Below, piece after piece: positions 38,706 to 40,280 of a stretch of 64,000 nt of DNA. This stretch comes from an uncultured Eubacteriales bacterium (GTDB lineage: Bacteria > Bacillota > Clostridia > Oscillospirales > CAG-272), in contig CAKSNQ010000002.1 of NCBI GenBank assembly GCA_934476315.1, forward strand, positions 4,943 through 68,942. The letters are read 5' to 3'. Position 1 is the stretch's first letter. The number at the start of each line of letters is the position of its first letter. Position numbers and translations under genes: made by a program. The notes beneath the pieces were generated by a model. That model saw only the letters and a program-made list of their open reading frames with translations, made no database searches and had not been told where the DNA came from.

Positions 38706-40280
38706 ATGGGAAGAATCAATTTTGTACAGATTTTGAAAATGGCGGCTTGTCTGATGCTCGCGGTACTGATGATCGGGCTTGCCGTCTCCGCCTTCGGGGC
38801 AGTTTCCGATAATGGCACGATCGGGGGTGGCACCACAGGCGGCACGACCACAGGCGGCACGACCACAGGCGGCACGACCACAGGCGGAACCACCGGAGGC
38901 GGTGCGACTCCGGGCAATAAGGATAATACATCCGCCGATTGCAAGCATGTACCCTATACGTCGTGTGCGGCTGCCGATGACGAGGTCCATAATGTTTGGA
39001 CGCTGTGCGGGCTGTGCAATCAGTCGCTCGCTCAGCCGGTCAGGGAAGCACATACCTTTGACAGCAACAATACGTGCACGAAATGTAAGCGCGTCAAGGG
39101 CACCACTTCCACCGGGGGCATCGTGACCGTTGATCAGTCGACCGGAAATACCGTGACGGATACCACAGGCGGCGAAACGGGCGATGACGTCACCGATGGA
39201 AGCGTGCCGCAGGAGAAATGTAACCACCTGAAGAAATCCGCCGGGGCTTTGACCGGGTATGCTCCGGCAGAAAAATATGTGTACCTGACGAACGGCTCTG
39301 TAAGTCACACGTGTCGGAAGGTTTGCGAGAAGTGCAACCATATTTTTAGTAGCACGACCAAGGTACATAATTTTGGTTCGGATGGCGTATGCATCCAGTG
39401 CGGTGATGCGTGCAAGCACGCACAGCTGACCGCGGCGTCGAAAACTTATGTCGATCTTGACGCGGAATATCACTGCCCGTATGGTACCTGCCAGGCTTGC
39501 GGTCTTACGGTCAAGCTGGAGAGCAAAAAGGTCAAGCATCGCTTCAACGGAACGAAGTGCGCGGACTGTGGGCACGGTTGCTCGCACGAATGGGATTTTC
39601 CGGATGCTCTCGGTGCCTGCAAGTGCGATCTTTGCGGATATGAGTGCTTCCATGCGAATGGTTTCGTCGAGGGAACCACAAGTGTGAAGTACGGTAGTGG
39701 CGGACACTGGACAGAGGGCGAGTGCGCAATTTGCGGGTATAACGAAGCCAAAAGCGCCGTGACCCCGCACACGCTCAATTCCTCCGGTCGGTGTAGCGGT
39801 TGCGCTTACCAGTGCGCTCACTCCAACACGGGACTGTCCTATGGCGATCGGAATTCCACTCAGCATACGACCTATACCGAGTGTCGCGACTGCGGTTATA
39901 TGGTATCGACAAAAACGGACGGACATTCTTTCGATGACGGAGTGTGTGTCGTTTGCGGCTACGGTTGCGAAGAACATACTTTTGCAGATTCCAGCACGGC
40001 AGATGGCGGTACCTGCACAAAGTGCGGGTATAAGTGCCAGCATGACCCGTGGGACCCCGCCTCGACCTTCGTGGAGGATTGGGACGAGGCGACGCATGCA
40101 TATACGCCCATTTGCGACACCTGTAACATGATGCACTATGAGCTTGAAAACCATAACTTTATCAAGGGTACTTGCGTGGTGTGCAATTACAAATGCAAGC
40201 ATCCCGGCGTGACCAAGGTCGGTGACATCTGCGGACGTTGTACCATGCAAATAACGGATGTGTCGCAAATAACGAAGTAA
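38706..40280 (+). CDS. membrane-anchored protein: Gly/Thr linker plus about 9 tandem Cys/His (CxH...CxxC...HxF...CxxCGY) modules
   Basis: 524 aa; TM AACLMLAVLMIGLAVSAF; GGGTTGGTTTGGTTTGGTTTGGTTGGG; repeated modules such as HSFDDGVCVVCGYGC and HNFIKGTCVVCNYKCKH. Confidence 0.7.
   Translation: MGRINFVQILKMAACLMLAVLMIGLAVSAFGAVSDNGTIGGGTTGGTTTGGTTTGGTTTGGTTGGGATPGNKDNTSADCKHVPYTSCAAADDEVHNVWTLCGLCNQSLAQPVREAHTFDSNNTCTKCKRVKGTTSTGGIVTVDQSTGNTVTDTTGGETGDDVTDGSVPQEKCNHLKKSAGALTGYAPAEKYVYLTNGSVSHTCRKVCEKCNHIFSSTTKVHNFGSDGVCIQCGDACKHAQLTAASKTYVDLDAEYHCPYGTCQACGLTVKLESKKVKHRFNGTKCADCGHGCSHEWDFPDALGACKCDLCGYECFHANGFVEGTTSVKYGSGGHWTEGECAICGYNEAKSAVTPHTLNSSGRCSGCAYQCAHSNTGLSYGDRNSTQHTTYTECRDCGYMVSTKTDGHSFDDGVCVVCGYGCEEHTFADSSTADGGTCTKCGYKCQHDPWDPASTFVEDWDEATHAYTPICDTCNMMHYELENHNFIKGTCVVCNYKCKHPGVTKVGDICGRCTMQITDVSQITK
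38838..38882 (+). repeat. 15-bp in-frame tandem repeat (ggcggcacgaccaca x3) encoding the G/T linker
   Basis: Three perfect copies with degenerate flanking copies (about 38826-38900). Confidence 0.9.

Follow-up and report, generated by a model that had tools for sequence, protein, structure and literature searches.

CH524, a tandem Cys/His-module protein encoded upstream of a membrane ATPase in an integrated clostridial element

Anatomy of CH524 and its variable linker

We analyzed a window of 64,000 nucleotides from an uncultured Eubacteriales bacterium of the CAG-272 lineage (assembly GCA_934476315.1, contig CAKSNQ010000002.1, positions 4,943 to 68,942 of the forward strand), in which an integrated element carries the gene of a protein with a tandem array of Cys/His modules, hereafter called CH524. 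All coordinates refer to this window and the features are collected in Table 1. From its N-terminus, CH524 presents a hydrophobic segment, a Gly/Thr linker, a single module, and a second linker that separates this module from the main array, which runs uninterrupted from aa 172 to aa 524. The protein contains 44 Cys (43 in the ectodomain), 24 His and 15 CxxC motifs. Five of its modules are full and a sixth is full but degenerate; two half modules and a CxxC cap at the C-terminus complete the set, so that the "roughly nine" modules counted in the first-pass annotation of this DNA were a fair estimate. Excluding the leading C-x-H, the full modules occupy aa 192-238, 247-294, 325-372, 378-424 and 455-499.

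A full module reads H-x3-5-C-x2-C-x6-12-H-x-[FWY]-x3-5-C-x2-C-x3-C-x1-2-H, always with C-x-H in front, and its eight ligand positions are invariant across 18 aligned modules. A profile built from the modules of other proteins only matched CH524 in 8 stretches with 111.5 bits (E = 2e-34), versus 7.2 bits with the same profile for the best of 200 composition-preserving shuffles of CH524. The pattern is therefore not an effect of composition, and the tandem array described in the first-pass annotation is real; the three example strings quoted there are all present in the protein. On the basis of this profile comparison, CH524 is a clear member of an unnamed clostridial family of cell-surface Cys/His tandem repeats (profile A1).

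No transmembrane (TM) segment was predicted beyond the N-terminal one, and no C-terminal hydrophobic segment was found, the maximal hydropathy over the last 40 aa being 0.5 (measured on the identical C-terminus of protein P0001). The hydrophobic segment that had been taken for a TM anchor does exist, and its long core, likewise present in the syntenic homologues, makes an uncleaved anchor the probable reading. That part of the earlier claim has to be softened all the same, as the sequence AFG↓A fits the -3/-1 rule for signal-peptide cleavage.

The first linker is encoded by a tandem repeat of period 15 (92% matches), in which the perfect run of the unit ACCACAGGCGGCACG spans 38832 to about 38887. 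The perfect threefold 15-bp repeat noted earlier at 38838-38882 lies inside this run and is perfect in another register. Among 5.8 billion proteins, the sole close homologue of CH524 has 519 aa and is identical save for one missing GGTTT unit; it sits on two ENA metagenome contigs (L001 and L002) bearing the same prophage. Over 21,575 bp, L001 and the window are distinguished by a single mismatch and a single gap, the latter being one 15-bp linker unit. L002 is also shorter than the window by one such unit. The length variation foreseen from the repeat is thus observed, with exactly one unit fewer in both copies; between L001 and the otherwise almost identical window, no other indel occurs in 21.5 kb. 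CH524 therefore offers a natural case of repeat-mediated length change, and slippage in the repeat would adjust the length of the first spacer. The homology search with full-length CH524 was dominated by linker words and returned one match, and the later search was run without the linker.

Other interpretations of this gene were rejected. A multihaem c-type cytochrome was discarded because a His follows none of the 15 CxxC motifs (no CxxCH). A cytoplasmic zinc-finger binder of nucleic acids was discarded too, since the protein begins with an export signal or anchor and the module family has extracellular partners. An antisense open reading frame (ORF) of 709 aa (38253-40382, minus strand) overlaps the whole gene; it was treated as a spurious shadow in GC-rich coding DNA, because the ribosome-binding site and the homologues belong to CH524.

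The module family and its predicted fold

The linker-free search gave five distant proteins with the same module, which carry signal peptides, lipoboxes or a sortase-like signal. When the module profile was run against 1.84 billion cluster representatives, a search that the first-pass annotation had proposed, 4,087 uncurated and mostly secreted proteins were found at E ≤ 1e-3 (1,027 at E ≤ 1e-10 and 110 at E ≤ 1e-30). Up to 55-67 module matches were counted per protein, in proteins of 2.7-3.3 k aa, and members reach 4.6 k aa among the best 150 matches. Hydrophobic N-termini were present in 131 of 153 top members. The Pfam partners detected in 58 scanned members were dockerin (5 proteins), SLH (3 proteins), cohesin, Big_2, Flg_new, LRR_5, GH43 and the LPXTG anchor. 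Module matches numbered 1,542 in 151 proteins; in the 434 near-full modules, the eight ligand positions were conserved at 81-99.5% and the four His positions at 81-98%. Of 257 A-B units, 199 have Cys as the first residue of [C/H]-x-H, and only a His was found upstream in 51 others.

None of these proteins has a name in the source databases. No Pfam-A, PHROGs or NCBIfam family matched CH524 (E ≤ 0.05-0.1), and no Pfam family covers the module in the 58 scanned members. CH524 had no match among PDB sequences, a profile search of the same sequences with the module was negative (best E 0.37, NrfH), and a word-indexed search with the module alignment gave no match either. Literature searches on the module returned nothing relevant. 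These results agree with the novelty suspected from the sequence, as no well-described domain family matches the repeat. Zinc-knuckle or zinc-ribbon mini-domains and phage adsorption proteins are already known kinds; the eight-ligand extracellular tandem array and its conserved slot in the elements described below are undescribed in the libraries and literature searched.

CH524 and the cellular members of the family share the same eight ligand positions with the same spacing. Nevertheless, the cellular proteins are often very large and combined with dockerin, SLH, cohesin, LRR or LPXTG domains, whereas the members encoded by elements are short (274-582 aa) and consist only of an N-terminal TM segment, a low-complexity linker and the array. 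No relative of CH524 was found in INPHARED phages and no close one in IMG/VR. Searching IMG/VR with a degenerate DNA pattern of the canonical module yielded two matches, one of them real. This viral contig of 74.7 kb (L022, UViG_3300029705_006902, at 1384-1434) encodes tandem B-type Cys/His units and, next to them, repeats of another type, T-x-x-G-x5-C-x2-CGH. Since this other type is also present in cellular members of the family, for example P0037, the two may be related.

An AlphaFold2 model of a double module (aa 314-424, alignment of 46 rows) had a mean predicted local distance difference test (pLDDT) of 83.4, with beta-hairpins before each A-type CxxC (predicted strands E12-16, E20-26, E62-69, E73-80 and E86-93). 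Foldseek comparison of this model with BFVD gave local matches, mostly to single zinc ribbons (32-43 columns, root-mean-square deviation 1-2 Å), at non-significant E-values of about 0.04-0.5. The earlier suggestion of serial Cys/His domains on an exterior surface is in line with an exported protein, with the predicted hairpin units and with these nearest structural neighbours. Like the zinc ribbons of the RNA polymerase subunit and of the TFIIS type (Pfam zinc_ribbon_2, DZR), the module would carry CxxC knuckles on beta-hairpins with four Cys/His ligands per site: its eight conserved positions supply two knuckles giving four ligands, and the hairpins that bear the knuckles appear in the model, which is a prediction. 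It differs from them by being extracellular and not associated with nucleic acids, by the mixed ligand order H-C-C-H-C-C-C-H in a double unit of ~45 aa, and by a C-x-H element that adjacent units appear to share. In addition, no zinc-ribbon Pfam family matches CH524 or the 58 relatives, and no significant PDB match was obtained by sequence or fold.

Cys-rich extracellular proteins also raise the question of disulfide knots, in which the His would be structural or unrelated and the modules would not be metal sites. The extracellular setting of CH524, where disulfides are common, and the 43 Cys of its ectodomain speak for such knots. We nevertheless consider them very improbable, in view of the conservation of four His per module, of the CxxC knuckle spacing with zinc-ribbon-like hairpins in the model, and of the interchange of Cys and His at the first position of [C/H]-x-H, which indicates a metal ligand and not a disulfide partner. 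Also, the hosts of the related elements are gut clostridia, and gut clostridia are anaerobes. From the model and the conserved positions, we conclude that the module is most simply read as a zinc-ribbon-like mini-domain, and that the extracellular family to which it belongs is widespread and uncurated.

The integrated element and the slot of CH524

The gene of CH524 belongs to a complete element (26016-46431) integrated at a tRNA-Leu(gag) gene, with a GC content lower than that of the flanks. Its length is about 20.3 kb, as bounded by the attL and attR repeats. CH524 lies in a co-oriented, tightly packed block made of tm191, tm386, CH524, sp648, tm33 and an 841-aa ATPase, with gaps of 15 nt and 19 nt between CH524 and its flanking genes. 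Scans of the element proteins with Pfam, PHROGs and NCBIfam detected no capsid, terminase, portal or tail family, and no obvious major-coat gene was recognised among the ORFs of the element.

Table 1. Features of CH524 and of the element that carries it (window positions; aa, residues of CH524 unless a protein length is given).
Feature	Position	Strand	Basis
CH524, Cys/His-array protein, complete ORF, 524 aa plus stop	38706-40280	+	ORF call; 99%-identical 519-aa protein in two ENA metagenome contigs
Shine-Dalgarno GAGGAG, 7 nt 5' of CH524 ATG	38693-38698	+	read directly from sequence
N-terminal hydrophobic segment, aa 12-31, MAACLMLAVLMIGLAVSAFG; probable signal-anchor, possibly cleavable signal peptide	38739-38798	+	hydropathy and syntenic homologues (inference)
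Linker 1, (G2-3T2-3)n, aa ~36-70	38811-38915	+	protein sequence
15-bp tandem repeat, unit ACCACAGGCGGCACG, 4.7 copies, copy number variable	38832-38902	+	Tandem Repeats Finder; natural prophage copies
Module 1, aa 79-127, degenerate full module without third Cys of B half	38940-39086	+	independent profile, independent E-value 2e-5
Linker 2, aa 130-171, G/T/D-rich	39093-39218	+	protein sequence
Module 2, aa 172-238, leading C-x-H included	39219-39419	+	profile
Module 3, aa 239-294	39420-39587	+	profile
Half module 4, aa 295-316, B-type only	39588-39653	+	profile
Module 5, aa 317-372	39654-39821	+	profile and AlphaFold model
Module 6, aa 373-424	39822-39977	+	profile and AlphaFold model
Half module 7, aa 425-446, B-type only	39978-40043	+	profile
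Module 8, aa 447-499	40044-40202	+	profile
C-terminal cap, aa 500-524, last CxxC, without C-terminal TM	40203-40277	+	sequence, hydropathy; H-x(8-10)-CxxC ending similar in L023 homologues
attL, direct repeat overlapping 3' end of tRNA-Leu(gag) (25956-26040)	26016-26176	+	repeat and tRNA search
Tyrosine integrase	26201-27193	-	library scan
CI/LexA-type repressor, helix-turn-helix (HTH_3) and Peptidase_S24	28218-28922	-	library scan
Rep, 404 aa, HUH-like motifs FAVFNN, HIHMV, YISK and superfamily 3 (SF3) helicase	30767-31981	+	PF00910 E 2.7e-6; HUH motifs read by eye
tm191, N-terminally anchored, 32-37% identity in related elements	36890-37465	+	TM prediction, comparison
tm386, N-terminally anchored exoprotein in variable slot	37530-38690	+	TM prediction, comparison
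sp648, 648 aa, signal peptide, large ectodomain, C-terminal TM, short basic tail; 29-34% identity in relatives	40300-42246	+	TM prediction, comparison
tm33, 33-aa single-TM protein; 37-aa counterpart in L023	42262-42363	+	TM prediction, comparison
841-aa multi-TM and P-loop (GTMGKGKT) ATPase, unclassified hallmark of the element family	42386-44911	+	sequence, homologue searches
attR, second copy of ~161-bp repeat, 3 mismatches	46271-46431	+	repeat search

In at least five divergent relatives of the element, array proteins lie between the tm191 and sp648 homologues, upstream of the ATPase homologue. The gene order is tm190, tm229, CH274, CH454, sp692, tm37, ATPase764 in L023, L024 and L025, and tm189, CH582, sp584, ATPase727 in L029; L030, L031 and L028 show the same neighbours of the array gene as far as their short contigs extend. 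All the syntenic array proteins have an N-terminal TM segment, a low-complexity G/D/N/S/T linker and a Cys/His array. In the closer relatives they are 23-29% identical to CH524, versus 43-53% for the ATPase, and the number of modules varies; the array proteins thus diverge faster than the core. Such conservation of the slot, combined with fast divergence, suggests that CH524 is a functional, rapidly evolving and surface-exposed part of an assembly or transfer machinery, and not a chance passenger. L023 carries two array genes in tandem (9174-9998 and 10001-11365, 274 and 454 aa), whose common C-terminal ending HLVIGDEENGFYC-x-YC suggests a gene duplication and a conserved tip.

More distant relatives, with an ATPase ~35% identical, follow the order of variable N-anchored proteins or lipoproteins, a TM protein of ~195 aa, a protein with a signal peptide and a C-terminal TM segment, the ATPase and Rep. 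Their Rep matches Pfam REP_ORF2-G2P (PF23343, the type of filamentous-phage gII and plectrovirus ORF2) with an E-value of 1.7e-13. None of them has a Cys/His protein, and the slot holds unrelated N-anchored proteins or lipoproteins. We infer that this exchange of unrelated exoproteins in one slot is the behavior expected of host-contact determinants.

The 841-aa ATPase has a basic N-terminus and several TM helices, and family loci were collected as L003-L020, L023, L029, L032 and L033. Homologues about 35% identical occur in 17 GTDB genomes, mostly metagenome-assembled genomes (MAGs) of Clostridia and Christensenella, and a further one in a database entry from human fecal samples that was submitted as 'Bacteriophage sp.' and flagged UNVERIFIED. 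The protein had no match in Pfam (Zot and FtsK/SpoIIIE included), PHROGs, NCBIfam or PDB. An hhalign comparison with M13 pI aligned only 15 P-loop columns with a probability of 1%, and a single-sequence AlphaFold model (pLDDT 37.8) was too poor for use. The ATPase alignment A7 gave no match in JGI metagenome contigs or IMG/VR, and neither did the single sequence in IMG/VR; alignment A5 retrieved two IMG/VR loci.

Several other observations were made on the element and its relatives. The architecture of Rep resembles that of the Reps of CRESS (circular Rep-encoding single-stranded) DNA viruses and pCRESS plasmids, here in an integrated clostridial element. Just inside attR, a non-coding 136-bp tandem repeat (45091-45604, 3.8 copies, 88% matches) could be an origin or iterons, and its copy number is apparently different in L002. 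An 84-aa Cys-rich protein (CPAYCGITCVNGYCP ... CKDCGYYRGCEDCC, 33370-33624) has no signal peptide and is unrelated to the Cys/His module. Upstream of the membrane-protein block, 35311-35787 and 36181-36723 encode two small, very basic proteins that could bind or condense DNA; the one of 158 aa shows an internal duplication, (S)FDVD(D/E)FFN(A/D)ALK...YIPV. In the distant relatives L003 (2692-4580), L006 (642-2565) and L016 (747-2632), a protein with HTH and S24 domains is directly followed by a protein of ~421-423 aa that looks like a Y-family polymerase (UmuC/ImpB) by its N-terminal sequence, and the pair may be an SOS-mutagenesis-like cassette instead of a simple repressor.

Possible functions of CH524

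We propose, with a probability of roughly one half, that CH524 is a surface-displayed, metal-stabilised host-contact stalk or adhesin belonging to the membrane-protein/ATPase module of a tail-less, rolling-circle temperate element. The protein would be exported, its N-terminal helix most likely holding it in the membrane with the C-terminus outside, and the two flexible Gly/Thr-rich spacers would carry the array through or above the cell wall. About 15 small beta-hairpin/knuckle units would follow one another in an elongated array, and in each unit a CxxC knuckle and two further Cys/His ligands would probably hold a single metal ion, most likely zinc; eight conserved ligands per module of ~45 aa point to two metal sites per module. 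About 15 zinc sites would make CH524 a stiff, protease-resistant rod, and this rod or its C-terminal cap would touch some structure on the surface of the recipient or host cell. CH524 would then act as an adhesin or as a receptor-reaching stalk, on a particle or on the producing cell. Its display on a released particle or on the donor cell would depend on the nature of the element, for which we lean towards a non-tailed phage, filamentous or pleomorphic, a conjugation-like nature being rather doubtful.

Several points weigh against this proposal. The N-terminal segment could be cleaved at AFG↓A, which would release a soluble protein. Metal binding by the modules is predicted from sequence and model, and Foldseek gave no significant match of the aa 314-424 model in PDB (E ≤ 1e-3) or BFVD. 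No function can be transferred from within the module family, whose members are all uncharacterised. The presence of CH524 in a particle, as well as the production of particles by the element, is hypothetical. Finally, the ATPase is unclassified and the element family is hardly represented in IMG/VR and INPHARED, and for these reasons the element could be an island of the conjugative type and not a phage.

The first-pass annotation had compared the architecture of CH524 with that of pIII, the adsorption protein of inoviruses. As with pIII of Ff phages (M13/fd), CH524 appears to be an exported protein of a tail-less rolling-circle element, with domains split by flexible Gly-rich linkers and a gene just upstream of a membrane ATPase gene block. 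In a strict version of this comparison, CH524 would be a functional analogue of pIII, that is, a minor coat protein capping a filamentous single-stranded DNA virion, with the array binding the receptor and the N-terminal helix in the virion tip. The tail-less element with its rolling-circle Rep, the REP_ORF2-G2P match of the relatives, the Gly-rich linkers and the succession of small and large membrane-protein genes before the ATPase gene would all fit. However, CH524 has no sequence or profile similarity to any pIII family, its anchor, if any, is N-terminal and not C-terminal, and Cys/His knuckle arrays stand in place of the N1 and N2 domains; the Gly-rich linkers, which had been taken as a hallmark of pIII, are present but not specific to it. 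The genome context gives a mixed picture, with an ATPase not detectably related to Zot/pI, a Rep of the HUH and SF3 type in the window but of the REP_ORF2-G2P type in the distant relatives, and no recognised coat gene. Known Enterocloster inoviruses, unlike this element, have Zot-like proteins (PMC10061712). Furthermore, sp648 has the topology of pIII and its place beside the ATPase, and by analogy it is a better topological counterpart of pIII than CH524, and the best pIII-like or spike-like candidate of the element. A length of 20 kb is, moreover, large for an inovirus. Taken together, these data make a strict pIII analogue quite unlikely, and the analogy is partly right in spirit, insofar as CH524 appears to be exported, has its domains spaced by linkers and probably makes host contact for a tail-less rolling-circle element.

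The element may also not be a virus but an integrative element moved by a single membrane DNA-translocating ATPase, as in the actinomycete integrative and conjugative elements (AICEs) of the pSAM2 type, CH524 then being an adhesin or spacer for donor-recipient contact. The gene set is similar overall to that of an AICE, with an integrase, a repressor, a rolling-circle Rep, one TM and P-loop ATPase and several membrane proteins, small ones and exoproteins; capsid genes were not detected, and the family is nearly absent from viral collections. Nevertheless, the ATPase lacks an FtsK/SpoIIIE signature or any other Pfam match, the hosts are clostridial, the Rep of the relatives is of the filamentous-phage and plectrovirus (G2P) type, and one relative comes from the unverified 'Bacteriophage sp.' record, so we regard this origin as unlikely. 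As for a lysogenic-conversion moron, which would alter the lysogen surface (adhesion or superinfection exclusion) outside transfer and assembly, the module otherwise typically occurs in cell-surface proteins of hosts, and the array protein is absent from the more distant relatives. The tight, co-oriented position of CH524 within the conserved block, at the distances given above, and the retention of an array protein in this position by at least five divergent elements render a moron improbable. A moron usually has a promoter and a terminator of its own and sits at a genome end.

The broader reading of these data is tentative. The Cys/His unit of ~45 aa may be an undescribed extracellular metal-binding superfamily, forming rod-like arrays of up to 55-67 units in surface proteins of clostridia, and it may have been adopted for host recognition by an unrecognised family of tail-less, temperate rolling-circle phages of gut clostridia with a new membrane ATPase, their reach being set by a slippage-prone linker. 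If confirmed, this would give a place to a domain that is found in thousands of secreted proteins, many of them with gut-clostridial surface-anchoring domains, and that has no name, structure or known function. With 355 aa of pure array, CH524 is a compact and tractable member of this family. The elements themselves are small, integrated in clostridial MAGs of several genera and largely missed by virus-detection resources and, if the reading is confirmed, they may represent either non-tailed phages of a new lineage or a novel transfer system in the human gut.

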